Positions 697 to 17,606 of a DNA stretch of 32,000 nt are shown in pieces. Source of the stretch: Archaeoglobus fulgidus DSM 4304 (GTDB taxonomy: Archaea > Halobacteriota > Archaeoglobi > Archaeoglobales > Archaeoglobaceae); the NCBI RefSeq assembly GCF_000008665.1, contig NC_000917.1, forward strand, positions 2,130,001 through 2,162,000. The letters run 5' to 3'. A model generated the notes under the pieces. The model saw only the letters and a list, made by a program, of their open reading frames with translations. It did not search any database and was not told the origin of the DNA. Both the position numbers and the translations under genes were made by a program. Numbering within the stretch: the first letter of the stretch is position 1; each line of letters opens with the position of its first letter.

Positions 697-1851
697 ATGG
701 ATGAAGCTCTAAGAGCGGGAAAAATCTCAGCTTTTGCCAATGTCGTTTTAACCGCCCTCAAGGTAGCGGCGGGAATTTTCGCGAATTCAACGGCTCTCAT
801 TGCTGATGGTGTCCACTCCTTGGTCGACGTTCTCGGCTCGGTCCTCGTCTGGCTGGGGATAAAGGTTGCTGAAAGGCCTGCTGATGCAAGCCACCCATAC
901 GGGCACTTCAAGGCTGAAAGCCTTGCTGAGATGGCGGTTGGGCTGATAATAATCCTTTCATCCCTCCTCATTATGCATGAAGCCATTTCGAGCGTCATCA
1001 ACGCTTCCGTGCCCACCTTCGAGCTTTACGCCGTAGCAGTAGCCATGCTTTCAGCCGTTGCAAATGAGCTCCTCGCGAGGTACAAGATAAGGGTCGGTTT
1101 GAAAACACGCTCGACATCTCTCATTGCGGAGGGAAAGCACTCCAGAGTTGACGTGCTCTCCTCATTAGCTGTTGTTGTCGGCTTCTTTTTCGTCTACTTC
1201 GGCTACTGGTGGGCCGATAGCGTCGTGGCGATAGCAATATCCGTTGTGATTTTGCAGATTGGCGGTTCGGTGCTGAAGAACTCCATAGACGTTCTCATGG
1301 ACAGGGTTGATGAGGAATTGGCGCTGAAAGTTAGGTCTGTAATTGAAAAGATTGATGGAGTGAAGTCCGTGGACTTCATAGGGACAAGGGGAACGATGAA
1401 GAGCAGGGTGGTTGAGGTTCACCTCACCGTCGATGCCGGAATGGATGCCGAGACCATCGCTGCACTGCAGAGGGAAATTTCAGAGGAAATAAAAGAGAGA
1501 ATTCCGGGTGTTGTTAACGTAGTTACTGTCGTAAACGTAACAAAGCCGAAGGTTCTCGCAATTCCGGTTGACTTGTATGGACACTACACGGGCGAACTCG
1601 ACTCCCCGAGGTTCGTCGTGGTGAACCTTGAGAGCGGGGAGAGAATGGTTGTGGAAAATGAGCACTACAGGGCTGAGAAGAGGAAGGGGTACCTGATTTC
1701 CGAGCTACTTGAGAAGCACGGGGTGAGCATGGTTGCCGTGAGAAAGGATGGAGAGGGGGCGAAAGCTCACCTCAAGAGCAGAGGCATACTGGTGAAAGTC
1801 ATTGACTCTGGGTTGAGGGATGTTGAGGATGTTTTGATGGCAGTTTCGTAA
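697..1851 (+). CDS. Cation diffusion facilitator (CDF) metal efflux transporter with an extra C-terminal NifX/NifB-like (Nitro_FeMo-Co type) domain
   Basis: 384-aa ORF. The N-terminal ~285 aa are a typical CDF: six TM helices, [13 protein letters not shown], a HPYGH motif, and a cytoplasmic alpha/beta domain ([21 protein letters not shown]). The last ~100 aa ([31 protein letters not shown]...[12 protein letters not shown]...GILVKVI) follow the NifX-like domain pattern. Confidence 0.85.
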
Positions 1852-3637
1852 ACAACATTTCTCGTAGCAGTTTAGACTCCAATCTGAAAAGCCACGAAAG
1901 GTTTAACTGGAACAATGCTAAGAAAATGACCATGCCAGGACTTGAGTCCTTGCTGAGGGAGGAGCGAGTTTTCTACCCTCCCAAAGAGCTCGCCGAAAAC
2001 TCGAACATCAAGCAGTTTATGGACAAGCACGGCATAAAGGATGAGGATGAGCTGAGAAAAAGGGCTTTGGAGAACCCGGAGTGGTTCTGGAGTGAGATGG
2101 CGAAGGAAGTTGGAATCGAGTGGTTTTCCGAGCCCGAAAAAGTTCTTGAGTGGGACCCTCCCTACGCCAAGTGGTTTGTGGGGGCGATGTACAACATAGT
2201 CCACGATGCCCTTGACAAGCAGGCTGAGCTGAGGAAGAACAAGGTTGCTTACATATGGGAGGGAGAGAACGGGGATGTGAGGAAGATAACCTACGGCGAG
2301 CTTTACAGGGAGGTTAACAAGCTCGCAAACGCCCTCAAGGAGTTAGGAGTTAAGAAGGGCGACAGGGTTGCGATTTACCTCCCCATGATTCCTGAACTGC
2401 CAATAGCGATGCTTGCATGTGCGAAAATCGGGGCGATTCACACCGACGTTTTCTCCGGCTTCAGCCCTATGGCGCTGAGAGATAGAATCAACGATGCTGA
2501 AGCGAAGCTTCTGATTACAGCCGACGGTTTTTACCGCAGGGGAAGTGTTATTCACCTCAAGGAGGATGCGGACAAGGCTTTGGAGGATGCGCCCAGTGTG
2601 GAGAAGGTCATCGTTGCGAGGAGAATTGGCTTGGACGTGCCGATGAAGGAGGGCAGGGACTACTGGTGGGATGATGTAACAAGAAATCAGCCAAAGGAGT
2701 GCGAGACGGAGGTAATGGATGCGAACGACATTCTGTTCATCCTCTACACCTCTGGCACAACTGGCAAGCCCAAAGGTGTGATGCACGCCCACGGCGGCTA
2801 TGCTGTTGGAACGGCAGCAACCCTTAAGTTCGTTTTGGATTTGAAGGAAAACGACGTTTACTGGTGCACGGCGGATATAGGATGGATAACGGGGACAGCT
2901 ACATAGTCTACGCCCCCCTGATTCTCGGTGCGACATCGGTGATTTACTGCGGCGTCCCTGACTATCCGAAGCCGGACAGGTGGTGGGAAATCATCGAGAA
3001 GTACGGCGTCACGGTATTCTACACTGCACCAACAGCCATAAGGATGTTCATGCGCCTCGGCGAGGAGTGGGTGGAGAAGCACGATTTAAGCAGCCTGCGT
3101 ATCCTCGGAAGTGTGGGAGAGCCAATAAACCCTGAAGCTTGGTACTGGTACTACAAGCACATCGGCAAGGAGAGATGCCCGATAATGGACACGTGGTGGC
3201 AGACCGAGACGGGTCACTTCATTGTCACCCCACTCCCTGTTACTCCTCTGAAGCCCGGCTCAGCGACAAAGCCGTTTCCAGGAATAGAAGCGGACGTTTT
3301 CGATGATAGCGGAAACTCCCTCTACGGCAAGAACGTTGGAGGCTACCTTGTCATAAAGAAGCCGTGGCCGGGGATGCTGCGGGGTGTGTGGAGAAACCCG
3401 GAGAGGTACTTCAAGACTTACTGGGAGAAGTTCAAGGATGTTTACCTTACTGGCGATGCTGCAAGGGTTGATGAGGACGGCTACTTCTGGATTCAGGGAA
3501 GGCTGGATGATGTTTTGAATGTGGCAGGGCACAGAATAGGCAACAGCGAGGTTGAGTCTGCCTTAGTCAGTCATCCTGCCGTCAGCGAGGCTGCTGTTGT
3601 TGGAAAGCCGCATGAGGTTAAGGGAGAGGCTATAGTT

Positions 3638-4884
3638 TAGGGCCCTTACCAAATCACATCTCCGCCAACCTCTGCAACACCTTCTTCTCCCTAAATCCCA
3701 GAGCAACAACCACGCCAACCAAAAGGACATTCAGAGTTGCAAATTTAAACACAGATCTCCTCGTATAACGATGCAATCTCCTCAAACCAAATGATTTAGC
3801 GAGTTTAAACACATCCTCTATGACAGATCTAACCCCCTTAAAAGTCTCCCATCTTTGCAACAAATTCAACAGCTTAGCCTTTAAAGCCTTAAACCTCCTC
3901 TTCTCCTCATCCAAATTCTTTGAGCTGAAAATACTCAGAGGATAGCTGAGCATTCCACTCAATCTCTGAATATTGAAGTTGGAACGAGGGAAAATCAAGG
4001 GAACAACCCTGTACTCGTTTATCCCCGATAAATAATTCCTGTAGGCGTAAAATCCCTTATCCATAATCACAGTATCTCCCATCCTTGCAATTCTCCTTCT
4101 CCTGAGTTCATTCATAATTTGATCGAAGATCTTAGCCTCATGCCTGTTTGCAGGATGCAGCAAAAAGAGCAAAGGTTTGAGAGAGGGGGTATTCTAAAAC
4201 CAGAGTCAGCTTAAATCCGACAAACATTCCTTTCGCGGAGTATCCCCACCTGTAATCCTTTCCATGCAAATCTTTCTGCCTAACAGGTTTCCTGAACCAG
4301 TTTATGTCTACACTAATGTCGGTACAATCTACGATTAGCTTAGTGTTTCTCGCCCTCCTCTTGGTTATTGAGTTCAGAACTCTCAAAATCATCGCTATAA
4401 AATTGCTTAATCCGAATCTCGAAAGAAAGGAGTATATGTAGGAAGTTTCTGGTACCTCATCTTCCCTTATTCCAAGAAACTCCCTTAAATCCTGTCTTTG
4501 CCTTAATTCTTCAACAACGTGAGAGATTTTGGTAGAGAAGAACATTGAGGTGAGAACGATTTTCATACAACTGATTGCAGTTTTTATTGGCGAAGTGAAT
4601 TTTGCTATGATCTTCCTCGTCTTTCTCATTTCGAAAATCTTAAGTATTTTCCCAAGTAATTGCCATCTGTAGTCGTTTGGGTCGACTGCAAGCGGGATCT
4701 GCATTGTTTCACCCAGAGGAGGCTTACGCCTCCTCCTACATAACTTTTGCGGTTTTTGATTGGTTTATTTCGGCTGGAGAAGGATTACTGGATGTCTCTT
4801 TTGATGGGAGGGTTGGATTGTTTGTAGTTTGGTGATTAAGGGAGTTAGAGGGGAGATTAGGATTAAGCTTGAGTAAGCACCTTA
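3638..4884 (-). mobile_element. Insertion sequence (IS4/IS5-superfamily DDE type), 1247 bp, inserted in acs
   Basis: A 7-bp direct repeat TATAGTT flanks it at 3631-3637 and 4885-4891. The terminal inverted repeats are imperfect (left TAGGGCCCTTAC..., right end reverse complement TAAGGTGCTTAC..., 9/12 matching, then degenerate). A transposase gene fills the interior on the minus strand. Confidence 0.85.
3654..4704 (-). CDS. DDE transposase (IS4/IS5 superfamily), split into two overlapping frames
   Basis: ORFs 4138-4704 and 3654-4172 overlap. The upstream part carries DCTD. The downstream part carries MDKGFY and RSVIEDVFKLAK (a Y/R-E-K type C-terminal motif). Deleting one C from the C5 run (G5 at 4185-4189 on the + strand) gives a continuous ...LEYPSLKPLLFLLHPANRHE..., about 350 aa. 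Confidence 0.8.
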
Positions 4885-5156
4885 TATAGTTGCCTTCGTC
4901 ATCCTCAGGAAGGGATACCAGCCGTCGGACGAGCTGAAGGAGGAGCTGAGAGAGCATGTGGCGAAAATGCTCGGAAAAATTGCTCGTCCGGATGAGATAT
5001 ACTTCGTGCCGGATCTGCCAAAAACGAGGAGCGGTAAGATCATGAGGAGACTCGTTAAGGCCAAGCTCACGAAAGCAAAGATAGGCGACACTTCGACGCT
5101 TATGAATCCAGAGGCTCTGGTTTACGTTGAGCAGGCCATTGAGGGGAGCAAGTAAG

Positions 5157-5176: not shown

Positions 5177-5188
5177 CGCTTAAAACTT

Positions 5189-5202
5189 TTAGGTTAACCG
5201 AA
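5189..5202. promoter_or_regulatory. DtxR/IdeR-like operator candidate upstream of the DUF5320-like genes
   Basis: TTAGGTTAACCGAA matches the feoA-proximal palindrome at 8384-8397 at 13 of 14 positions. It abuts a T/A-rich TATA-like stretch (5205-5213), about 45 nt upstream of ATG 5251. Confidence 0.45.
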
Positions 5203-5250
5203 AATTTTTTAAGTCAACTTTGTGGCTACTAATTTTTGGAGGTGAGAAAA

Positions 5251-5451
5251 ATGCCTGGCGGAGACAGAACCGGACCCTGGGGTCAGGGGCCGAGAACTGG
5301 CAGAAGAGCAGGATTCTGCTCCGGCTACAGAATGCCGGGATTCATGAACCGCTCCGTCTGGCCACCTTTCGGTGGAAGATGGTTCAGATGGTTCGGCAGG
5401 AGATTCTGGGGCAGGAGAGCCGGTAGAGCTGGTAGAGGGAGGTGGTGGTGA
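5251..5451 (+). CDS. DUF5320-like small protein, N-terminal part (Gly/Arg/Trp-rich)
   Basis: GGAGGTGA at 5238-5245 is followed by ATG 5251. The ORF reads [31 protein letters not shown]..., which fits the N-terminal motif remembered for DUF5320. It ends ...GRGRWW at TGA 5449-5451. Confidence 0.65.
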
Positions 5452-5711
5452 TGCCCTGGTGGATGCCCGGCTGGGGTGGCAGAGGCTGGAGGTGGTGGTA
5501 TAGAGCCACTGGACTACCGGGATGGATGAGATGCAGATGGTGGGGATACCGGGACCACCCTTGGGACTACCCACCATATCCACCCTATCCACCAGCTCTC
5601 CGTCCTGAGGATGAGCTTGAAATGCTCGAAGCTATGAAGGAGGACCTTGAGGCAGAGCTTGAGGACATCAAAAAGAGGATTGAAGAGTTGAAGAGGGAGC
5701 TTGGGAAGTAA
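5451..5711 (+). CDS. DUF5320-like small protein, C-terminal part (Trp-rich segment, PPY repeats, coiled coil)
   Basis: ATG 5451 overlaps the preceding stop (TGATG), and GGAGGTG lies at 5438-5444. The ORF reads [18 protein letters not shown]...PPYPPYPP followed by [34 protein letters not shown]. The ORF track starts this frame at GTG 5442. Confidence 0.6.
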
Positions 5712-5712
5712 T

Positions 5713-6015
5713 TTATTTTCTTGCTTTTTTAACCAAGTACGGAACTGTAACTAATCCGAAGATTCCGTAACTGAAGCTTCCTGAGGCCATATAAACAAGA
5801 ATCATCAGAACCGAGAAGGCTGCAGCAAGCAGAGAGGCAACGAAAAGATACGAGTCCCTTCTCACAACGACACCCTTTGCAAAGGTTGCAGTAATCGTTC
5901 CGAGCACAAAGGCGTTCATCAGCGTCCCTTCCCCTCCAAAGATATTCAGGGCTGAAAGAACCTCAAGGATTGTCAGGAGGGAGAAAAAGGCAGTAAAGGC
6001 AAAGGCTACAACCAA
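5713..6015 (-). CDS. Small polytopic membrane protein of unknown function, downstream of feoB
   Basis: ORF 5713-6090 overlaps feoB by 85 nt. A TTG at 6015-6013, just upstream of the feoB stop, gives a 100-aa protein with 3-4 hydrophobic helices and a KKARK tail. The start choice is uncertain. Confidence 0.45.
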   Translation of the reverse strand: MVVAFAFTAFFSLLTILEVLSALNIFGGEGTLMNAFVLGTITATFAKGVVVRRDSYLFVASLLAAAFSVLMILVYMASGSFSYGIFGLVTVPYLVKKARK

Positions 6016-7709
6016 AGTCCCACCCCCGTTGCGATTAAGGCAATGACGTAGGCAACCGAGAAGCTGAAGATGACCGCAAATGCAGCCCATTTTGCCCCGA
6101 TTTCAGCCCTTATTGCCGCTATTGTAGCAACGCACGGCATGTAGAGGAGGGTGAAGAGCATGTACGCAAACGCTTGGTGGGGTGTCATTATGCTCCGAAT
6201 GTCGATGTTCAGCACGCCAATTGTTGCCACAACAACCTCCTTTGCCACGAATCCAGATATAAGCGCCAGAACCAGCTCCCAGCTCCAGCCCATTGGAGAA
6301 AAGATGGGCTGAATCGCTTTGCCGAGCATCGCCGCATAGCTCTCCTCTATGCTCCCTCCCGGATAGGTGGTGATGTACCACACAACAACCGACATCGCCA
6401 GAATCACAGTCCCCGCCTTCTGAATGAAGTGCTTCGTCCTGCTCCACGTCATGATCCACAGCTCCTTAAGGTTAGGAAGCATGTAAGGGGGGAGCTCCAT
6501 TATGAACTCGCTCTCACCCTTCAGCAGAGTTTTTCTCAGAATTAAGGCCGATATCAGGGCTATCAGAACACCTATCAGGTACATCGACATTATCACAACA
6601 CTACCCATCTTCGGGAAGAATACCCCGGCGAAGAGCACGTAAATCGGAAGTCTTGCCGAGCAGGACATGAATGGATTTATTAGAGCTGTCGCAATTCTGA
6701 CCTTTCTGTCCTCTATGCTTCTCGTGGCAAGAATTGCCGGAACGTTGCAGCCGAAGCCCATTATCAGCGGTATTACAGCCCTACCATTCAGCCCGAATCT
6801 TGACATGAACCCGTCAACCAGAAAAACGGCTCTCGGCATGTATCCACTCAGCTCAAGCATGGACAGAAACAGAAAGAGAAAGGCGATGTTCGGAACGAAG
6901 GAAAGAACACTCCCAACTCCGGCAACAACGCCGTTACCGAGCATAGAGAAAAACCAGCCGTCGAAGCTGGCAATGTAAGACGCCATAGCATCGAATGTAA
7001 TGCTGAGAAGGTCGTTGAGCGGCTGAGCAACGGAGTAGGTGAAAACGAACATCATCCACATGAAGGAGAGGAATATGGGAATCCCGAGATGCTTATCCAT
7101 GAAGACTTCATCAAAGGCTTCCTCAATTTCCGATTTTTCTGGCTTTTCAGCTACCGTTACCTCCCTTGCAATTTTCTCCGTCGTCCTGATTATATCCTCA
7201 AGGTTTCCTCGAAAAGCCCTTGGAACTCTACCCCCTTTGAGGATTTCCCTTTTTAGCTCCTCTATTCCCACACCTCTTACAGCAGAGGTTTTTACCACCG
7301 GTACACCCAGAATTTCGCTTAGCCTTTCAGCATCAATTCTTATGCCTTCTTTCTCAGCCTCGTCAATCATGTTGAGAACGACAATCATTGGAATGCCGAA
7401 CTCCGTTAGCTGAAGAGTGAGGTAGAGGTTCCTCTCAAGGTTCAGGGCGTTTACAACATTGAGAATGAGGTCGGGCTTCTCGTTTTTCAGGTAATCCCTT
7501 GCAACCTTCTCGTCAAGGCTCTCCGTCTGAAAGCTGTAGATTCCGGGTAAATCCACGAAAGTTACCGTTTTCCCACCTATCACACCTTTCCCTTCCTTTT
7601 TTTCCACCGTCACTCCCGGAAAGTTCCCGACCGAGAAGTCCCCACCGGTCAGAGCATTCAGCAAGCTCGTTTTACCGACGTTGGGATTTCCCACCATTGC
7701 AATCTTCAA
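6006..7709 (-). CDS. feoB: Ferrous iron transporter FeoB
   Basis: 567 aa. It has an N-terminal G-domain (MVGNPNVGKTSLLNALTG, DLPG) followed by the FeoB polytopic membrane domain. Confidence 0.95.
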   Translation of the reverse strand: MKIAMVGNPNVGKTSLLNALTGGDFSVGNFPGVTVEKKEGKGVIGGKTVTFVDLPGIYSFQTESLDEKVARDYLKNEKPDLILNVVNALNLERNLYLTLQLTEFGIPMIVVLNMIDEAEKEGIRIDAERLSEILGVPVVKTSAVRGVGIEELKREILKGGRVPRAFRGNLEDIIRTTEKIAREVTVAEKPEKSEIEEAFDEVFMDKHLGIPIFLSFMWMMFVFTYSVAQPLNDLLSITFDAMASYIASFDGWFFSMLGNGVVAGVGSVLSFVPNIAFLFLFLSMLELSGYMPRAVFLVDGFMSRFGLNGRAVIPLIMGFGCNVPAILATRSIEDRKVRIATALINPFMSCSARLPIYVLFAGVFFPKMGSVVIMSMYLIGVLIALISALILRKTLLKGESEFIMELPPYMLPNLKELWIMTWSRTKHFIQKAGTVILAMSVVVWYITTYPGGSIEESYAAMLGKAIQPIFSPMGWSWELVLALISGFVAKEVVVATIGVLNIDIRSIMTPHQAFAYMLFTLLYMPCVATIAAIRAEIGAKWAAFAVIFSFSVAYVIALIATGVGLWL

Positions 7710-7713
7710 AAAA

Positions 7714-8160
7714 TCACCTCTGCTTGCACGGATGCCTTCCGGTCCTGCAGAACTCCCTAAAATGCTCCAACCATCTCGGATTTACAGCCGGGCTGGATTC
7801 AACAAATCTAACAAAGTTTCTGAGCTGCCTGAGAGTTTCGGGATGCAGGACGTGCTCAATGGTGCACGCATCCCTTTCGGCCACATCTTCTGGAACCCCT
7901 ATCGCCTTGAGGAACTTGATTACAACATTTCTTTTCTCCCTCAGCTTCATCGCTTCCCTGACACCTTTTTCCGTCAGCTTTACGTGAGACCTTTTTTTGT
8001 ATTCCACATATCCCATTCTGGAGAGCTTTTCGAGCATCTCGGAAACGGTTGCGGGCTTGACATTCAGCACTTCGGAGAGCTCCATCACCTTTGCATAACC
8101 CTTCTCTTTGCTCAGACTGTAGATAGCTTCGAGATAGTCCTCAGCCCTGCTCCCCAACAT
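7714..8160 (-). CDS. DtxR/MntR/IdeR-family metal-dependent transcriptional repressor
   Basis: 148 aa. The N-terminal wHTH reads EDYLEAIYSLSKEKGYAKVMELSEVLNVKPATVSEMLEKLSRMGYV. A dimerisation/metal-binding helix region follows (ACTIEHVLHPET). Confidence 0.9.
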   Translation of the reverse strand: MLGSRAEDYLEAIYSLSKEKGYAKVMELSEVLNVKPATVSEMLEKLSRMGYVEYKKRSHVKLTEKGVREAMKLREKRNVVIKFLKAIGVPEDVAERDACTIEHVLHPETLRQLRNFVRFVESSPAVNPRWLEHFREFCRTGRHPCKQR

Positions 8161-8377
8161 CCACCGCCACCTTCATCGCCAAACCTCTTCCGATGACAAA
8201 TTTGGTTCCGTTAACCGAAACAAGAACAGCCCCACCTCTCCGCCCGGCAATCCTGATTTTCTTGCCCGGAACTATTCCCATGGACATGAGCCTTGCTGTA
8301 CAGCCCCTGCCCCCGTTAATCGCAACAACTCTGCCTTCCTGGCCTTCTCTGAGCGCCGATAGCGGTACCACTGTCAT
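8141..8377 (-). CDS. feoA: FeoA-domain protein
   Basis: 78 aa with an SH3-like FeoA pattern (PLSALREGQEGRVVAI....RLMSMGIVPGKKIRI). It overlaps the dtxR-like gene by 20 nt. Confidence 0.85.
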   Translation of the reverse strand: MTVVPLSALREGQEGRVVAINGGRGCTARLMSMGIVPGKKIRIAGRRGGAVLVSVNGTKFVIGRGLAMKVAVDVGEQG

Positions 8378-8383
8378 CGTCTC

Positions 8384-8397
8384 TTAGGTTAACCTAA
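8384..8397. promoter_or_regulatory. Perfect 14-bp palindrome TTAGGTTAACCTAA; operator candidate of the feoA-dtxR-feoB operon
   Basis: It lies 7 nt upstream of the feoA ATG (8377) and just downstream of a minus-strand TATA-like TTTAATAA (8401-8408). Its two heptamers equal the outer heptamers of the DtxR/IdeR consensus. A degenerate copy, TTCGGTTGTCCTAA, lies at 8412-8425. Confidence 0.55.
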
Positions 8398-8457
8398 ATG
8401 TTATTAAAGCTTTCGGTTGTCCTAAATTAAAGCTCCGGAATGGCAAAAATTGTAATG

Positions 8458-8581: not shown

Positions 8582-10978
8582 ATGGTGCTTGAATTCGGAA
8601 AGGGAGCTTTTGTTGTAGACGACCTAAGGAACGTCACCATAAAAATAGGAGAAATAGCAGAAGAGGAAGAAGAATGGGCTCCAATGGGTCCAACGCCAAT
8701 GCCGGGCATCGCAACCCTTCGCGATTGGGACTTCTTCCTGCTGAAGCGCTACAAGCCCTTCTACGCCCCCGCTTGCGACATGTGCTGCCTCTGTACGATG
8801 GGGAAGTGTGACCTGACGGGGAACAAGAGGGGAGCGTGCGGTATCGATTTGGCTGCTCAAACGGGTAGAATTGTGACCATTGCCTGCTCCATTGGTGTTT
8901 CCGCCCATACTGGCCACGCAAGGCACATGCTCCACGACATTGAGCACATGACGGGCAAGAAGCTTAGCGAGATTCCGGTTGACCTCGGCCCCGAAATTGA
9001 TGAAGTTGCACCGCTCACAGAGCTCATTACGGGAATAAAGCCAAAGACGCTTGAGGATTTGGAAAGGGCTCTGAGGTATGCTGAGGAGCAGATTGTGCAG
9101 GTTGTTGATGCAGTCCACACAGGTCAGGAGGGTAGCTACCTCGATTACGAGAGCAAGGCTCTCCACCTCGGTATGCTCGACTCTCTTGGAAAGGAGATTG
9201 CAGATATAGCCCAGATTTGCGCCTTTGGCTATCCGAAGGGTGAGGACAACCAGCCCCTCATCGAGGTCGGAATGGGTGTAATGGACAGAAGCAAGGCCAT
9301 GATTCTCGTCATCGGTCACCACGCGCCACCTGTGCTGAACATTGCAGACTACATTGAGGAAAATGGACTTGAGGATGAGGTTGACCTCGGCGGTATCTGC
9401 TGCACGGCAAACGACATGACCAGATACTACCAGAAGGCAAAGATTGTCTCGGCATTGGGTAGGCAGCTTAAGGTAATCAGGGCTGGACTGGCTGACGTAA
9501 TAGTTATCGATGAGCAGTGCATAAGGGCGGACATCCTCTACCACACTAAGAAGCTCGGCATCCCGGTAATCTGCACAAACGAGAAGGCGATGCACGCTCT
9601 GCCCGACATGACGAAGGAAGAGCCAAAGAACATCATCAAGTACCTGCTCGATGGCAATCCGGGATGTGTCATCCTCGACCCGCTGAAGGTTGGAGAAGTT
9701 GCGGTTGAGGTTGCGAGGGCGAGGAGGAAGCAGAGAGGAGACGATATTGGGCCGAGACTCACAGAGGAGCAGTTCATGGAGTATGCAAGGGCATGCACGC
9801 AGTGCGGAAACTGTACAATTGCCTGCCCGCAGGGAATCAGAATCGGCGAGGCGATGGAGGCTGCTGAAAACGGAGACAGGAGCAAGCTGGAGAAGGAGTG
9901 GGATGTTTGCATTGCATGCGGAAGGTGTGAACAGGTCTGTCCAAAGGGCATTCCGATCATCGACATGTACAACTACGCAGCATGGAATCTCATCGTGAAC
10001 GAGAAAGGTAAGTTGAGAAGGGGTAGAGGTCCTATAAGGGATTCAGAAATTAGGAATGTTGGTGCTCCGATCGTTCTGGGAACGATTCCGGGAATAATCG
10101 CTGTCATAGGATGTGGAAACTACCCGAACGGAACAAGGGATGCTTACACCATAATGGATGAGTTTGCATCAAGAAACTACATTGTGGTTACAACGGGCTG
10201 TATGGCCTTTGATGCTGCACTCTACAAGGATGAGGAAGGACAGACAGTCTATGAGAAATACCACGACAGGTTCGATGGCGGTGGAGTCGTGCAGATCGGT
10301 AGCTGTGTCGCTAACGCCCACATTCACGGAGCTGCAATCAAGGTTGCGAGAATCTTTGCCAAGAGAAACATCAGGGCCAACTACGAGGAGATTGCAGACT
10401 ACATCCTGAACAGAGTTGGTGCGTGCGGTGTTGCCTGGGGAGCTTACAGCCAGAAAGCTGCATCAATCGCTACAGGCTTCAACAGGCTCGGAATCCCTGC
10501 AGTTGTAGGCCCGCACGGCAGCAAGTACAGAAGAGCTTTCCTTGGCAGACCATATAACGATGAAGACTGGATGGTTTACGATGCAAGGACTGGAGAAAAG
10601 GTCAGAATTGAGCCAGCCCCGCAGGATTTGCTTGTTGCCGCTGAAACCATTGAGGAGGCAATCCCGCTGATGGCAAAGCTCTGCTTCAGGCCGAACGACA
10701 CAACTCAGGGAAGGTCCATCAAGCTGACGCACTACATCGACCTCAGTCTGAAGTACCTCAAGCGCATGCCAGATGACTGGCACCTCTTTGTCAGAACTGA
10801 GGCAGACTTACCACTAGCCAAGAAGGAAGAACTGCTGAAGGAGCTTGAGGACAAGCACGGCTGGAAGATTGACTGGCAGAAGAAGAAGATTGTCGAGGGG
10901 CCAATCAGGGGCTACCATGCTGGCTTCAACCCGACGAACCTTGAGAGATGCCTCAGAGATGGATTCATGACGGTGTGA
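8582..10978 (+). CDS. cdhA: Acetyl-CoA decarbonylase/synthase complex subunit alpha (CO dehydrogenase catalytic subunit)
   Basis: 798 aa. It has the N-terminal Cys cluster ([16 protein letters not shown]), internal 2x[4Fe-4S] ferredoxin motifs ([24 protein letters not shown]), and the C-cluster region. AGAGGTGA lies upstream of the ATG. Confidence 0.95.
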
Positions 10979-10988
10979 GGTGGTGAAA

Positions 10989-11516
10989 ATGGCCAAGGCT
11001 TTGGAACAGCCCTTTGATGTGGCCAACATTCCTGGGCCAAAGATGGCAACTCTGCTTGAGAAGGGGAAGCCGGTTGCAAACATGATAAAGAAGGCAAAGA
11101 GGCCACTGCTCATCGTTGGTCCAGATATGACCGATGAGATGTTTGAGAGAGTAAAGAAATTCGTTGAGAAAGATATCACAGTTGTGGCAACGGGAAGTGC
11201 CATCACGAGGTTCATTGATGCTGGTTTGGGCGAGAAGGTGAACTACGCGGTCCTTCACGAGCTGACGCAGTTCCTGCTCGACCCGGACTGGAAGGGATTT
11301 GACGGGCAGGGCAACTACGACCTCGTGCTCATGCTGGGCAGCATCTACTACCACGGCTCCCAGATGCTTGCAGCGATAAAGAACTTCGCCCCGCACATCA
11401 GAGCTCTCGCTATAGACCGCTACTACCACCCCAATGCTGACATGAGCTTTGGAAACCTCTGGAAGAAGGAAGAGGACTACCTGAAGCTGCTGGACGAAAT
11501 TCTGGCAGAGCTTTAA
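10989..11516 (+). CDS. cdhB: Acetyl-CoA decarbonylase/synthase complex subunit epsilon
   Basis: The ORF reads [46 protein letters not shown]... GAGGTGGTGA lies directly upstream of ATG 10989. The ORF track starts this frame at GTG 10980. Confidence 0.9.
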
Positions 11517-11585: not shown

Positions 11586-11721
11586 TGGGGCCGGTGGGAT
11601 TTGAACCCACGACTGGCGGGTCTCTTCGGGTCAGAGCTCCAACGGGTCATCACCGCTCAGCAGACCCGTCAATCATCACGCCGCTGGAGCCCGCCGCGCT
11701 TCCTGGCTACGCCACGACCCC
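11586..11721 (-). tRNA. tRNA-Trp (anticodon CCA) with a 62-nt intron at the canonical 37/38 position
   Basis: Folded by hand. Acceptor GGGGUCG/CGGCCCC; D arm GCGU-AGCCAGGAA-GCGC; anticodon stem GCGGG/CCCGC with loop CU-CCA-G|intron|A; T arm GUGGG-UUCAAAU-CCCAC; discriminator A. T5 follows the 3' end. A minus-strand TATA-like TTTAATAT at 11745-11752 lies about 27 nt upstream. Confidence 0.9.
11622..11683 (-). ncRNA. Intron-encoded box C/D guide RNA within pre-tRNA-Trp
   Basis: Minus-strand order: box C UGAUGA (11678-11673), a 12-nt guide, D' CUGA (11660-11657), C' UGAUGA (11652-11647), a 12-nt guide, D CUGA (11634-11631). Both guides are complementary to the anticodon arm of the host tRNA. 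Confidence 0.8.
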
Positions 11722-12491: not shown

Positions 12492-15002
12492 ATGCTGAAA
12501 AAAATTGCAGGATTAGCCCTAATCATAATTTCAGTTTCACTGCTGTCGAGCTTCATCTCATCACTCGATTTCAGCAAAACCGGTTTTGAGGGGCTAATCG
12601 GCAAAGGGGATTTCGGAGGCGGGAATTCTGCGGGAGTGCAGTATCCTCAGTACTCAACCACCCAGGGGGAAGTTTTCGGAGGTGAAGGTAGCGGAGGGGG
12701 CTTTGCAAGTCTTAGCGACAGCTCAAGCACGTTCAACCCTCCCAACGTTCCGCTCTTCTTTGTGGAGGGGCTGAATCCCGAAACAAACTACCTCAGGCTG
12801 TACACCGCGACTAGGTACGAGAACGGGAAGTGGGTTGAAGATAAAGGAGATTGCAGCCAGGAATCGATACCAATAGCAAGGAAATTCAAGCTCACGCCCA
12901 TCGTCGAACTGAACCGCTACCTTCCCGTCTCAAAAGACACGAAAGGGATACTCCCGGTCGGTGAGAACATAGAAAGGTGCTACAACGCCGCAACCGGAAC
13001 CTTCAGGATTAACGCTACCAGGTCTCCTTATTACGGCTTCACGACTGCAAAGAGCTTTAAGCCAACAAGCTTTATGGGAACTGCAAGCTACCCCGATCCC
13101 GAAATACGCGCTCTGGCGGAGAAAATTACCGCCAACGCCACATCCGACCTCGAGAAGGTAAAGGCCATAGAGAGCTATCTCAAAAACAACTACATAAACA
13201 CGTACGTCGAGAGAACCGACGTTAAAGAGTTTCTTTTCAAAACGAAAAGGGGCACTGCAAGAGAATTTGCCACCGCCTTTGTGCTCCTCGCCCAGTCGAT
13301 AGGAATTCCCGCAAGGGCAGTATTCGGCTATCTTGCAGACCCTGTCGAGACCAATCAGACCATTTTCGCCAGCGATGCCTACGTCTGGGCGGAGGTGAGG
13401 TTCAAGGAAGGCTGGATGGAGTTCGACCCCGCTCCCGAGGGGAGGGGGATTAACACTACAACCGCCATAACATACATTGACTCGAAGCTCGTGGCGGGGG
13501 AGAACTTTACCGTCAGAGGTTACGTTGAGGACGAATTCGGCAATGATGTTTCGGGATACGTTGAGATTTTCCTCAAAAAGGACAAAAAGAGCAGAGAGGG
13601 AATCCTTGCCGGAGTTGTGCCCGTTAAAAACGGCAAGTTTGAGGCCGTGCTAAAGGTGCCGGAGGTAACGGGGAGGTACAGCGTTCAGGCTCACTTCACG
13701 GGCACGCTCTACCACATGGAATCGTGGAGCGACCCGGAGGTTGAAATTTACTACCGTCCGACCTTCAACGTAACTCTGCCCAGCAGAGTTCCAGAATGGT
13801 TCACTCTTTCGGGAAAACTTGAATCATCGCCTCCATTCAGCGGGCAGATACACCTCTGCGTTGATGGTAGCTGCAGAAAGATTGAAGTCGTTAACGGTAA
13901 TTTCAGAGAAGAGCTCTCATTGGCAAAGGGGAAGCACGAGATTGCGCTGATTTTCAAAGGAATGGGGTATCTTCTTCCTGCGGAGTTCAGGAAGGAAGTT
14001 GAAGCTGGAGAGGTGAGCGTTGCGATAAATGAGGCCGTTGGGGAAGGAGAGGATGTTACAGGGGTGGTTTACTTCAATGGCCAGCCGGTAAACGCAACGG
14101 TAAGGATAGGAAACGTTACGGTTAAAGCTGTAAACGGCAACTTCTCTGCTAAATTGCCCCTTAATCTCGGAAAGAACGAGCTGAAAGTAGAGATTCCGGA
14201 TTTGCTATACTCGGAAACGAAAATCGTTTACATGAAGGAACCTGTAGAAATAAAGGCTCAGAAGGTTGACGGAAAGCTGAGAGTCATCGTTCTCGATAAA
14301 GATGGAAATCCAGCCGATGGATTCGTCGAGGTTGACGGTGTGAAGAAGGAGCTCTTGAACGGCATGGCCGAGTTTGAGGTTGAGAATCCAAAGCTCATAG
14401 TTTACTCAGGCAGCGAGAGGTACTTCCCGGCCATAAAGGAATTCTCGTCTGTCACACCTTTTATTCTCATTCCCGTTGCGGTCGCTGCCATCAGCGTTGG
14501 TGCACTCCTCGCTTACCGCATGCTCTTCAGAGTTGAGAAAATAGATTTTTTCGTTGAGAAGGAGCATCCTGAGCTTCCTAACATCTGGGATGTTGGGGAA
14601 ACCGTGAAGATCAGGCTGAGCGAGCCGGCGTTTGTCAGATACGACGGCTTCGAGGAGTTCACGGACACCATAACGCTTACACCCGAAAAGTACGGGACGG
14701 TGAGGGTTCAGGCTTTCAGGGAGGACGGCAGGAAGAGGAAGAGGGGTGAGATTGAGATTAAAGTGGCTCCCTACTCGAATGGAATTGCTGAAATCGTCAG
14801 AAAGATTGATGAAATCGGCAGAAAAAGGCTGGGCAGGGTTGAGAGCATGACTGCGAGGGAGGTTATGGAGAAGCTCGGCGTAAGGGCTGAAGTCCTGCTG
14901 AACTACTTTGAGAGGGGCGTTTACGGTGGGGAAGAGTACACGAGAAGGGATTTTCTTGAGGCTTTTTACGACTACTTGAGGGTGGTTGGCGATGAGGCTT
15001 AA
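12492..15002 (+). CDS. Large membrane-anchored transglutaminase-like protein (Ig-like repeats, TM helix, DUF4129-like C-terminal domain)
   Basis: 836 aa with an N-terminal signal/anchor. The TGase-like core reads [28 protein letters not shown]...DAYVWAEV...GWMEFDPAP. Beta-rich repeats follow, then a TM helix ([19 protein letters not shown]) and a cytoplasmic tail. Confidence 0.8.
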
Positions 15003-16038
15003 CAAGCTTATTTCCGGTCTCGGTTTAGCATTTGCAATTTACTTCTTCCTGCTGAATCAGGAGAGGTTATTCGGAGAAGTTTTCGTGGTTGCAGACGAAA
15101 TGCAGAGAGCTGCTCTGCTGACTTTAATAGTTGCTTACTCAGCCCTCGCTTCAGTTGAGAGGCTAAATCCTTTCAGACTGGTTTTAGTCCCTTTCATCCT
15201 GATTGTTTCCTCAGACATTACCTTTAACTCCCTGCTTTCTCACGGATACCCGCAGTACTTCGTCGTTTACCAGAGCGTGAGAGGGTATATAGCAATCTTC
15301 TCCGGGTCGTTCGCCTTCTCTTACATCAGATTTACCGACAAGCCCCTCTACCAGTCTTTAATCTCCGCAACATCTCTTGGTATTGCTGGTTTGTCCTCCT
15401 ACTACCTTTTCTCGTACCTTTCCGAGGTTTTTGGGCTGCCGTCTCTCGCCCTCCCCTCTCTCGCCCTCTTCCTGATTCTTGCCGTTACGGCACTCTCAAC
15501 AGCCTTTGAAGGTGAGGTTTTCCAGTGGATAAGGTCGGAGAGGACTTTTCTCATGCTGGTTCTCTTCATCCTCACTTTTTACACCCTCGCAATCAAGCCT
15601 CAGCTCTCTGAAAGACCGGGGATTGCTGACTTCATCGAGTGGTCGATAGTTGCTCTGACCTTCATCAAGATTTCAAGGGACTTCAGAAGGAGTGTTGAGG
15701 TCGACGAAAGGGAGTTCATAGCCTCCCACGTTCCTAAGGAAAGGGTATTCAGGGACAGGCTTTACTCCGAGCTGGAATTCGGTGAGAAAGCTTTCGTGGA
15801 AGGGGGATCAAAAGTTCCTCTCACAATTGCCCTTGTTAGAGCGCTCTCGAACGTTGAGGCTCCAAAGCTTGCGGCCATACTCGCTCCTCTGATTAGCTAC
15901 GAGGATGAGAAGCTTCCCGCCCTCTCATTCCCCTGGGAGAGGAGGATAATCGAGAGCAGAAACAGAAGGAGAAGGGAGAAGGTTGTAGAGAGAATCAGAG
16001 CGGAGGTCATGAGGGAGGTAAAAGATTTTAACCGCTGA
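14992..16038 (+). CDS. Polytopic membrane protein of unknown function with a charged C-terminal domain
   Basis: ATG 14992 overlaps the upstream stop codon region and is preceded by GAGGGTGG. The protein has about 7 hydrophobic helices followed by ~130 aa of soluble sequence ending in an RRRREK-rich helix. Confidence 0.6.
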
Positions 16039-16052
16039 TTTCTACTTTTCAG

Positions 16053-17606
16053 GTGTTTGAGCTTGCCAAAGAGATTGCCGAGAATGCAAGAAGCAAGGAG
16101 GAAGTTCTCAGGATAAAGAGGTTATTCGCCAGAAGGCACGGCCTCTCCACCATACCGTCGGACGCCGAGATACTCAGGGCTGCGAAAGGGACGGAGCTCT
16201 ACGGAAAATTGAGGGAGATTCTGAGAGTTAAGCCCGTCAGAACCATCAGCGGTGTTGCTGTGGTGGCTGTAATGACGTCTCCAGCACCCTGTCCCCACGG
16301 CAAGTGCCTTCCGTGCCCCGGTGGTGTGGAGAAGAACACACCGCAGAGCTACGTCGGCCTTGAGCCTGCGGCGATGAGGGGGAGGCAGCACGGCTACGAT
16401 GCATTTAAGCAGGTCACTGCAAGACTTAGGGAGCTTGAGAGCATAGGCCACGACGTTAGCAAGGTTGAGATAATCGTGATGGGCGGAACCTTTCCCGCGA
16501 GAGACGCTGATTACAAGGAAAAATTCATGCTGGGTATTTTCAACGCTCTCAACAGCTTTAACAGCAACACCAAACCCGAAAATGACCTGGAAAGGGCGAA
16601 GAGGAAGAATGAGAGGGCCAAGGCGAGGTGCGTTGGGATAACATTCGAGACCCGGCCGGATTATGCGAGAGAGGAGCACATAAGGGAGATGCTGAGGTTC
16701 GGCGGTACAAAGGTTGAGCTGGGCGTTCAGAGCCTTTACGATGACGTGCTGGAGAGAATAAAGAGGGGACACGGGGTTAAGGAAGTTGCGGAGGCAACGA
16801 GACTGCTCAGGGACTCAGCCTTTAAGGTCGGCTACCACATCATGCCCGGACTTCCGGGGTCGAGCTTTGAAAGAGACCTGAGAATGTTCAGAGAGCTTTT
16901 CGAGAACGATAGCTTCAAGCCGGATTACCTCAAAATTTACCCTACTCTTGTCGTTGAGGGGACGGAGCTTTACGAGATGTGGAAGAGAGGGGAGTATGAG
17001 CCATACACAACTGAAGAGGTGGTGGAGCTAATCGTAATGGCAAAGCGTCGCTTTCCCGAGTGGGTGAGGGTTCAGAGGATTCAGCGCGACATTCCCGTTA
17101 AGGCGGCAATAGGCTTGGACAAGGGCAACATCAGGCAGCTTGTCCACAGAAGGCTGAAGGAGATGGGATACAGCTGCAGGTGCATTCGCTGCAGGGAGGT
17201 TGGACACAAAGGGGTGAGGCCCGAGGAGTACTCCAAAGCCGAGCTTGTTGTAAGAGAGTACGTTGCATCCGAAGGTAGGGAGTTCTTCATATCCTTCGAA
17301 ATACCCGAGTACGATGCGCTTGTCGGCTTTGTGAGGCTGAGGTTTCCCAAAGAGCCTTTTATCGAGGTGTTGAGAGATGCTGCTCTAATTAGGGAGCTTC
17401 ACGTTTACGGCAGGGCTGTGCCGATTGGGCAGAGCAGCGACGCCTTCCAGCACAGGGGGTTTGGTGAGAGGCTGCTGAAAGAGGCTGAGGAGATTGCGAA
17501 GGAAGAATACGACAGAATTGCGGTAATCAGCGGTGTGGGTGTGAGGGATTACTACAGAAAACTTGGCTACAGGCTCAGACAAGGATACATGGTCAAGAAA
17601 CTGTAG
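16053..17606 (+). CDS. elp3: Elp3-type radical SAM/GNAT enzyme (tRNA U34 carboxymethylation; archaeal Elp3)
   Basis: 517 aa. It has RTISGVAVVAVMTSPAPCPHGKCLPCPGG, a radical SAM core, and a C-terminal GNAT domain (HRGFGERLLKEAEEIA). Confidence 0.9.
   Translation: MFELAKEIAENARSKEEVLRIKRLFARRHGLSTIPSDAEILRAAKGTELYGKLREILRVKPVRTISGVAVVAVMTSPAPCPHGKCLPCPGGVEKNTPQSYVGLEPAAMRGRQHGYDAFKQVTARLRELESIGHDVSKVEIIVMGGTFPARDADYKEKFMLGIFNALNSFNSNTKPENDLERAKRKNERAKARCVGITFETRPDYAREEHIREMLRFGGTKVELGVQSLYDDVLERIKRGHGVKEVAEATRLLRDSAFKVGYHIMPGLPGSSFERDLRMFRELFENDSFKPDYLKIYPTLVVEGTELYEMWKRGEYEPYTTEEVVELIVMAKRRFPEWVRVQRIQRDIPVKAAIGLDKGNIRQLVHRRLKEMGYSCRCIRCREVGHKGVRPEEYSKAELVVREYVASEGREFFISFEIPEYDALVGFVRLRFPKEPFIEVLRDAALIRELHVYGRAVPIGQSSDAFQHRGFGERLLKEAEEIAKEEYDRIAVISGVGVRDYYRKLGYRLRQGYMVKKL

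Follow-up and report, generated by a model that had tools for sequence, protein, structure and literature searches.

The DUF5320 gene pair of Archaeoglobus fulgidus DSM 4304 is preceded by a 14-bp inverted repeat that is probably a functional operator, through which a DtxR-family regulator encoded nearby, in the operon of the iron importer Feo, would repress the pair when Fe(II) is sufficient. We analyzed a window of 32,000 nucleotides of this genome (contig NC_000917.1, positions 2,130,001 to 2,162,000 of the forward strand; all coordinates below are window positions), in which the site, TTAGGTTAACCGAA, lies on the forward strand at 5189–5202. A sequence-only reading of the window had proposed it to be a second feo-linked DtxR operator in control of the DUF5320 genes, a proposal that is supported by the conservation of the site in nine of nine comparable loci, its likeness to sites in the feoA promoter, and the tracking of the motif with the clade of the regulator.

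The Candidate Operator Site and Its Rarity in the Window

The 5189–5202 element agrees in 13 of 14 positions with the perfect palindrome TTAGGTTAACCTAA at 8384–8397, as the sequence-only reading had noted, and these two are the sole matches in the window, on either strand, when at most one mismatch is allowed. Allowing up to three mismatches also yields 8412–8425, located in the intergenic region of the palindrome and 28 bp away from it. The further claim that such a match would hardly be expected by chance holds, as none of 100 dinucleotide-preserving shuffles contained any match. We also scanned the window with a weight matrix trained on feoA-promoter sites from other genomes only (training-site scores of 15.8–22.4). 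The highest scores were 22.4 for the palindrome (hereafter O1), 21.5 for the 5189 site, and 19.1 for 8412–8425 (hereafter O2), followed by 13.9 for a position within cdhA. Shuffling the window 200 times gave a top score of 20.6, which the 5189 site exceeds and to which O2, scoring below it, comes close. All three sites fall in two promoters, those of feoA and of the DUF5320 pair, and the matrix scan of the window recovered no further operators, for instance none before the gene encoding a cation diffusion facilitator (CDF) transporter fused to a NifX-like domain (Table 1).

The shortness of the motif (14 nt) and the AT-rich spacer around it would speak for a functionless chance match. This account is effectively refuted by the conservation of the site at a fixed position in nine of nine loci, as described below, and no shuffle reaches the score of the 5189 site. 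The site is an inverted repeat of TTAGG-type half-sites, as in operators of the DtxR/IdeR type. It is enclosed by a 28-nt near-palindrome at 5182–5209, AAAACTTTTAGGTTAACCGAAAATTTTT, with two mismatched pairs, and because the TTTT/AAAA flanks are kept in most DUF5320 promoters, the recognized element may exceed 14 bp. A hairpin, terminator, or RNA element at this position was ruled out, since the 8-bp core has no loop and Rfam gave no match there.

Conservation of the DUF5320 Promoter in Archaeoglobi

We compared nine distinct Archaeoglobi-type DUF5320 loci spanning at least five gene contexts. These are the window (with which the near-identical strains L168–L170 were counted), L001, L002, and L171, in which three the DUF5320 pair adjoins feoB, and L081–L085, which lie away from feo in four gene contexts. 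All nine carry TT(A/C)GG-N4-CCGAA directly before a TATA box, 33–48 nt 5′ of the ATG of the first DUF5320 open reading frame (ORF1; these distances and the ORF1/ORF2 junctions given below were read by eye). The site is exact in eight of the nine loci, L084 having TTCGG, a single mismatch. The TATA box reads AATTTTTTAAG in the window, AAATTTAAGT in five of the eight other loci, and AACTTTAAAG, AGATTGATAT, or AAATTAATAT in the rest, while the remaining upstream sequence and the neighboring genes mostly differ from locus to locus. With a chance frequency of ~1.9e-6 per position for the exact pattern, ~0.007 matches would be expected in the DUF5320 upstream regions. An exact scan with TTAGGNNNNCCKAA across 242 kb of Archaeoglobi DNA gave intergenic matches only at the promoters of feoA, of DUF5320, and of one NifX-like operon in L002; the sole non-intergenic match was inside the feoB coding sequence (~0.9 matches expected by chance).

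The right half-site of the operator overlaps a putative transcription factor B recognition element (BRE), with a TATA-like box next to it, and this position is kept in the nine loci (both elements being assigned by consensus). In the window, the TATA-like stretch at 5205–5213 and the Shine–Dalgarno sequence at 5238 that the sequence-only reading had placed downstream of the site are both present, and the ORF1 start codon is at 5251. What lies 5′ of position 5189 is the 3′ part left over from an acetyl-CoA synthetase gene that a frameshift and an insertion sequence (IS) element have disrupted, and there is therefore no divergent promoter for the 5189 site to serve.

It is conceivable that the conserved block is nothing but a strong core promoter (an extended BRE/TATA with a T-rich upstream element) that is free of metal regulation and resembles feoA by coincidence, given that CCGAAA(A) fits the BRE consensus and the AAATTTAAGT that follows fits a TATA box. 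We consider this highly unlikely, because the TTAGG half-site lies 9–14 nt 5′ of the BRE, outside TFB contacts, yet is kept in all loci but the one with TTCGG, and because the 242 kb hold the full pattern at no promoters except those just listed.

The feoA Promoter and the Feo-Encoded Regulator

Around relatives of the regulator we retrieved 80 loci, 15 of them from Archaeoglobi. The feoA promoter has the same order in all 15, namely O2 (TTAGG-N4-CCGAA), a TATA box, O1 (TTAGG-N4-CCTAA), and the start codon, with the centers of O2 and O1 27–28 bp apart and the start codon 5–7 nt past O1. By consensus, the CGAAA of O2 doubles as the BRE in these promoters. In the window, O2 (8425–8412), which the sequence-only reading had overlooked, is a closer structural analogue of the 5189 site than O1. 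The DUF5320 site thus has the same form and placement as the O2 of the feoA promoter, which supports a response to the feo-encoded regulator.

The gene for this regulator is the sole DtxR-family gene of the window and, as had been stated from the sequence, sits in the feo operon (feoA-dtxR-feoB by Pfam); it is embedded in feoAB in 15 of 15 Archaeoglobi loci. The protein matches Fe_dep_repress (PF01325, a winged helix-turn-helix; 93.6 bits, cut-off 26) and Fe_dep_repr_C (PF02742, for metal binding and dimerization; 60.7 bits, cut-off 27), and its recognition helix reads PxTVSE. Across the 80 loci, motif density within 400 bp upstream of the clade's dtxR gene is 1.42/kb, compared with 0.024/kb elsewhere, a ~60-fold enrichment. 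Sites precede this gene in 29 of the loci, which come from Archaeoglobi, Altiarchaeota, Hadarchaeota, Bipolaricaulota, Thermococci, and others.

The ligand positions D8, E11, C99, E102, and H103 are invariant in the regulator clade and form a mixed set, D8 and E11 being MntR-like and the Cys DtxR-like, and the His77/His79 ligand position is Arg/Lys in the Archaeoglobi regulators. Cys99, Glu102, and His103 correspond to Cys102, Glu105, and His106 of DtxR. The protein scores below both NCBIfam equivalog cut-offs (106.6 against 138 for MntR NF003025; 32.4 against 290 for actinobacterial DtxR NF053665), and its closest solved structures are those of MntR. Its C-terminal ~25 residues (7714–7790, minus strand) form a conserved, His/Cys-rich WLEHFxEFCxTGxHPC extension beyond the dimerization domain, which is also present in Altiarchaeota and Hadarchaeota relatives and may be an extra metal or redox site standing in for an SH3 domain.

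Comparison with Known DtxR-Family Operators

The half-sites are identical to those of the palindromic iron box (TTAGG...CCTAA) found at iron-uptake promoters of Corynebacterium and Mycobacterium, where the classical boxes are bound by the metal-activated dimeric repressors DtxR and IdeR, members of the same Pfam families as the window regulator. The classical DtxR/IdeR box spans 19 bp and is occupied by two dimers. The window sites do not have this layout; they are 14-bp units, two of them 27–28 bp apart at feoA and one at DUF5320, and match an engineered DtxR site, identical to TTAGGTTAACCTAA, that binds a single dimer. They also differ from the iron box in that the promoters under their control would be of the archaeal BRE/TATA type instead of the sigma-70 type, and the window regulator differs from DtxR and IdeR in lacking the SH3-like third domain and having Asp in place of Met10.

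Archaeal DtxR-family regulons around feoAB were reportedly surveyed by Leyn and Rodionov in 2015 (J Bacteriol 197:451), with the regulator said to have been named FetR. The window order feoA-dtxR-feoB fits the pattern of these regulons, which reportedly have dtxR inside or beside feoAB and palindromic autoregulatory sites. The operator is an ordinary member of this well-known class, and the DUF5320 site may already be listed in the 2015 survey.

MDR1 of A. fulgidus, which we take to be a paralogue other than the window regulator, was reportedly linked by Bell et al. in 1999 to an ATP-binding cassette transporter, with operators that overlap the transcription start and block RNA polymerase rather than TBP/TFB. 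This metal-dependent repressor and DtxR homologue has the consensus GTT-N8,9-AAC (PMC3074139), from which the 5189 site differs, and an MDR1-type operator was therefore ruled out. Because the motif is tied to the clade of the feo-encoded regulator and the MDR1 motif is different, the feo-encoded regulator is the most likely binder of the sites; the feo context and the Cys ligand make iron the most likely signal.

Proposed Regulation and Its Alternatives

In the proposed mechanism, one metal-loaded dimer would bind the inverted TTAGG/CCGAA half-sites at 5189–5202. Since the right half-site runs into the BRE and borders on the TATA box, the bound dimer should exclude TFB and TBP, and the DUF5320 operon (5251–5711) would be off at sufficient Fe(II). 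When Fe(II) becomes scarce, the apo-repressor would leave both promoters, and the Feo importer and the DUF5320 proteins would be made together. We infer repression, the metal sensed, the identity of the binder, and the core-promoter assignments from geometry, likeness to feoA, the feo context, and consensus.

Several points weigh against this proposal. The right half-site is always CCGAA and doubles as the BRE, and its conservation could therefore partly reflect the core promoter. The DUF5320 promoter has the upstream-type site only and, past the TATA box, reaches the start without an O1-type site, so repression may be weaker or the sign of regulation different. The regulator has Asp where DtxR has Met10, and MntR is its nearest relative by sequence, which makes Mn(II) sensing a possibility. 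Other DtxR paralogues, such as MDR1, are to be expected in Archaeoglobus genomes and could bind similar sites. As a family-wide property, the proposal is further opposed by 72 non-Archaeoglobi DUF5320 loci with a full 200 bp of upstream sequence, which score like control segments under the matrix.

The lone site upstream of the TATA box speaks for the idea that the same DtxR-family protein, when metal-loaded, activates the DUF5320 promoter, with expression then high at iron sufficiency, as for a storage or buffering factor. Such an arrangement resembles that of archaeal regulators that activate from just upstream of the BRE/TATA and repress from downstream sites, SurR and TrmBL1 being examples that switch sign with site position. 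However, the right half-site shares bases with the BRE instead of being placed 5′ of it, a geometry that favors competition with TFB, and the same arrangement is found at feoA, where activation by iron would be physiologically senseless. Moreover, homologues of the iron–sulfur storage protein IssA in Methanococcus voltae rise together with Feo and not opposite to it (PMC8516115). Activation, the main rival reading, is accordingly an unlikely outcome in our estimation.

Archaeal genomes hold one to five DtxR paralogues (PMC10783522), and the site could be real yet read by another of them, or by the same protein acting as an Mn(II) sensor, in which case the pair would not be iron-regulated. The MntR affinities of the regulator speak for this, as MntR provides both the nearest curated families (well below the cut-offs) and the nearest solved structures, Asp8 and Glu11 are MntR-like, and His77/His79 is replaced by Arg/Lys in Archaeoglobi. 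Against it stand the half-sites, which are those of the Fe-type DtxR/IdeR box, the location of the regulator within feoAB in all 15 Archaeoglobi loci, and the Cys99/Glu102/His103 triad, which matches Cys102/Glu105/His106 of DtxR. The differing MDR1 consensus (PMC3074139) also argues against that paralogue. We judge another reader or another metal to be improbable, and repression by the Fe(II)-loaded, feo-encoded regulator is the reading followed below.

The DUF5320 Proteins and Their Possible Partners

The pair had been described from the sequence as DUF5320-like, and the family assignment stands (PF17253, above cut-off); that the two are genes of one split domain had been overlooked. Each matches one half of the PF17253 profile, and ORF1 and ORF2 are therefore halves of a single DUF5320 domain. 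ORF1 has an isoelectric point (pI) of 12 and contains 16 Gly, 15 Arg, 7 Trp, 6 Phe, 14 aromatic residues in all, 6 Pro, and 1 Cys, and in alignments it has the N-terminal motif MPxGDxTGPxGxGPxTGRxxGxCxG with a single invariant Cys. ORF2 comprises a Trp/Pro-rich basic region followed by an acidic C-terminal coiled-coil helix. In an AlphaFold2 model of a full-length DUF5320 relative (39-sequence alignment), the predicted local distance difference test score is below 57 for residues 1–90, and only a helix at 94–127 is confident. We found no solved structures related to DUF5320, only weak coiled-coil matches, and no defense-system annotation for the small ORFs of the window.

The split between the two reading frames is kept across the nine loci in varying form: a TGATG overlap in the window, L082, L084, L085, and L171; TAATG in L001; TAG followed by a GTG start in L002 and L081; and TGA-CCT-AAA-ATG in frame in L083. 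A GGAGGTG Shine–Dalgarno sequence lies inside the 3′ end of ORF1. Since the stop codon is always present, the junction is varied, and the Shine–Dalgarno sequence is internal, ORF1 and ORF2 are two translationally coupled polypeptides. Programmed −1 frameshifting was ruled out by the constant presence of a stop of varying identity (TGA/TAA/TAG), by the shared frame in L083, and by the Shine–Dalgarno sequence in ORF1; the conserved but variable stops and the internal Shine–Dalgarno sequence likewise rule out a split due to sequencing error.

A search with DUF5320 gave 1269 clusters, from anaerobic bacteria and archaea, and the family nearly always keeps company with NifX-like, MinD-ferredoxin, and Mrp genes. 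In the 46 DUF5320 loci that reach 4 kb or more, the neighbors include NifX-like genes in 33, MinD-Fer4 in 21, Mrp in 13, feoB in 4, and dtxR in 3. In L164, DUF5320 is fused to the C-terminus of a NifX-like domain, and of the 120 proteins most closely related to this fusion, more than 100 carry both Pfam domains. The CDF-NifX fusion that the sequence-only reading had placed 3.3 kb from the DUF5320 pair is borne out by Pfam at 697–1851, and in NCBIfam the CDF part is nearest to MamM and MamB, the iron transporters of magnetosomes, with scores under the cut-off.

The NifX-like operon of L002 (Archaeoglobus sp. UBA230) that was recovered in the 242-kb scan lies within 13010–16485 of that locus on the minus strand and is preceded by a DtxR-type site (16129–16116) and a TATA box. 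Its products are a NifX-like protein bearing an Arg/Gly tail, a protein of 83 aa, two MinD-like ATPases that contain ferredoxin inserts, and Mrp. The operon ends just 5′ of the DUF5320 pair, and upstream of the DtxR-type site there is another NifX-like gene.

The composition of ORF1 resembles that of the tail of IssA (PF2025), the thioferrate iron–sulfur storage protein of Pyrococcus furiosus, in which a NifX-like domain is followed by a disordered Trp/Gly/Arg-rich tail proposed to wrap anionic thioferrate (PMC5524996). The IssA tail has 70 aa, is unstructured, has a pI of 10.7, and contains 15 Gly, 14 aromatic residues, 11 Pro, and the only Cys of the protein; the conserved feature of IssA-type tails is their Trp/Gly/Arg content (PMC5524996). 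ORF1, also predicted to be disordered, is alike in length, charge, Gly and aromatic content, and its one Cys, the likeness being one of composition and architecture, and DUF5320 is frequently a C-terminal fusion to a NifX-like domain, as in IssA. Unlike IssA, ORF1 and ORF2 have no NifX-like domain (IPR003731/PF02579) and have a C-terminal coiled coil. By analogy with the IssA tail, the DUF5320 proteins may act with NifX-like proteins in iron or iron–sulfur (Fe-S) handling.

In M. voltae grown on FeS2, FeoAB, DtxR, and two NifX-like IssA homologues rise together, and the authors infer that Fe(II) limitation is sensed (PMC8516115). This pattern is what would be expected from direct DtxR control of IssA-like genes. 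A wider view, which we put forward tentatively and hold to be rather doubtful, is that DUF5320 is a free-standing IssA-type cationic tail that forms, with NifX-like proteins (including CDF-NifX) and MinD-Fer4/Mrp, an Fe-S sequestration or trafficking system that in Archaeoglobi would be a direct target of DtxR as Fe(II) sensor and would be switched on together with Feo. If this were so, imported iron would be captured at once, and the joint rise of the IssA homologues and FeoAB/DtxR in M. voltae would be explained.

DUF5320 is a large family without an assigned function, for which the operator would be the first regulatory handle, and a full-text literature search found it mentioned in just two papers, both unrelated. 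The proposed regulation predicts that Fe(II) limitation induces the DUF5320 pair along with Feo, and the operator would connect the family with the IssA/thioferrate route of iron–sulfur storage, which is poorly understood. What appear to be new are the dual-site promoter grammar, the DUF5320 pair and the L002 NifX/MinD/Mrp operon as targets, and the link to IssA-type Fe-S handling. The grammar, consisting of a site over the BRE, a TATA box, and a site over the transcription start, could be used in genome scans for archaeal DtxR promoters.

DUF5320 Loci of Other Lineages

The sequence-only reading had placed a W/R/G-rich protein family in an archaeal iron regulon. The comparative evidence favors this for Archaeoglobi and not for other lineages, where the 72 loci mentioned above show no enrichment. 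None of 78 non-Archaeoglobi DUF5320 loci has a site within 200 bp upstream, which rules out a DUF5320–DtxR link across the whole family and makes the link between operator and DUF5320 specific to Archaeoglobi. The only two exact matches in non-Archaeoglobi DUF5320 loci, in L089 and L092, are at an operon of a dtxR-feoA fusion and feoB and not at DUF5320.

Both of these loci come from a low-GC archaeal metagenome, and their DtxR-FeoA fusion (234 aa) and feoB lie 0.8 kb from a DUF5320-Mrp-NifX cluster (506–6568 in L089). The DtxR-FeoA/feoB operon of L089 has an O2-type site and a TATA box. The cluster includes two small Cys-rich proteins that open with the DUF5320 N-terminal motif, and a Lrp-like regulator with a Cys-rich C-terminus is encoded between the feo operon and the DUF5320 cluster.

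Features of the Window

Table 1. Positions and supporting evidence of the promoter elements and genes discussed in the text.
Feature	Position	Strand	Basis
CDF transporter fused to NifX-like domain, possible DUF5320 partner	697–1851	+	Pfam Cation_efflux, ZT_dimer, Nitro_FeMo-Co; no matrix match nearby
Candidate DtxR-type operator, BRE-overlapping "O2" type, TTAGGTTAACCGAA	5189–5202	+	Matrix score 21.5; kept in 9/9 Archaeoglobi-type DUF5320 loci
Putative BRE CGAAAA (5199–5204) and TATA box TTTTTTAAG (5205–5213)	5199–5213	+	Archaeal promoter consensus
Shine–Dalgarno sequence of ORF1, GGAGGTGA	5238–5245	+	Reads GGAGGTGA or GAGGGTGA in L001, L002, and L171
DUF5320 N-terminal half, 66 aa (ORF1)	5251–5451	+	PF17253, 50.3 bits (cut-off 27), profile positions 1–56 of 99
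DUF5320 C-terminal half, 86 aa (ORF2)	5451–5711	+	PF17253, 38.5 bits, profile positions 36–99; start overlaps ORF1 stop (TGATG)
feoB	6006–7709	−	Pfam FeoB_N, Gate, FeoB_C
DtxR/MntR-family metalloregulator (148 aa) with two domains, presumably bound at all three sites	7714–8160	−	Pfam and clade motif enrichment
feoA	8141–8377	−	Pfam FeoA, 65.9 bits
feoA operator O1, TTAGGTTAACCTAA, perfect palindrome between TATA box and (near-)leaderless ATG at 8377	8384–8397	−	In 15/15 related feoA promoters
feoA TATA box, TTTAATAA, between O2 and O1	8401–8408	−	Consensus and conservation
feoA operator O2, TTAGGACAACCGAA, overlapping the BRE, 28 bp from O1	8412–8425	−	Exact in 14/15 related loci, one mismatch in L011
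cdhA and cdhB, divergent from feoA	8582–11516	+	

Between the DUF5320 pair and feoB lies a small membrane-like ORF, orf125 (5713–6090, minus strand; 125 aa as listed, with a 100-aa form preferred by gene callers), which shares up to 85 nt with the 3′ end of feoB. No match to it was found in Pfam, NCBIfam, or PADLOC, and a detached FeoB C-terminus was ruled out, as there is no similarity. It is kept downstream of feoB, at 35–69% identity, in L001, L002, L003, L005, L008, and L009, and may be an unrecognized Feo-associated protein.

The AMP-forming acetyl-CoA synthetase pseudogene upstream of the DUF5320 pair spans 1926–5155, with a frameshift between the ORFs at 1926–2906 and 2864–3640. The IS element within it (~3636–4887) is flanked by the target duplication TATAGT and carries two mutually frameshifted DDE/DUF772 transposase ORFs (3654–4172 and 4138–4704, minus strand); L168 has an intact transposase of 349 aa. 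In L001, the acetyl-CoA synthetase gene has no IS interruption, yet appears in the same separate pieces. Beyond the feo region, 11586–11721 (minus strand) encodes a tRNA with an intron, within which lies a C/D-box small RNA (Rfam sR3, 11629–11683).

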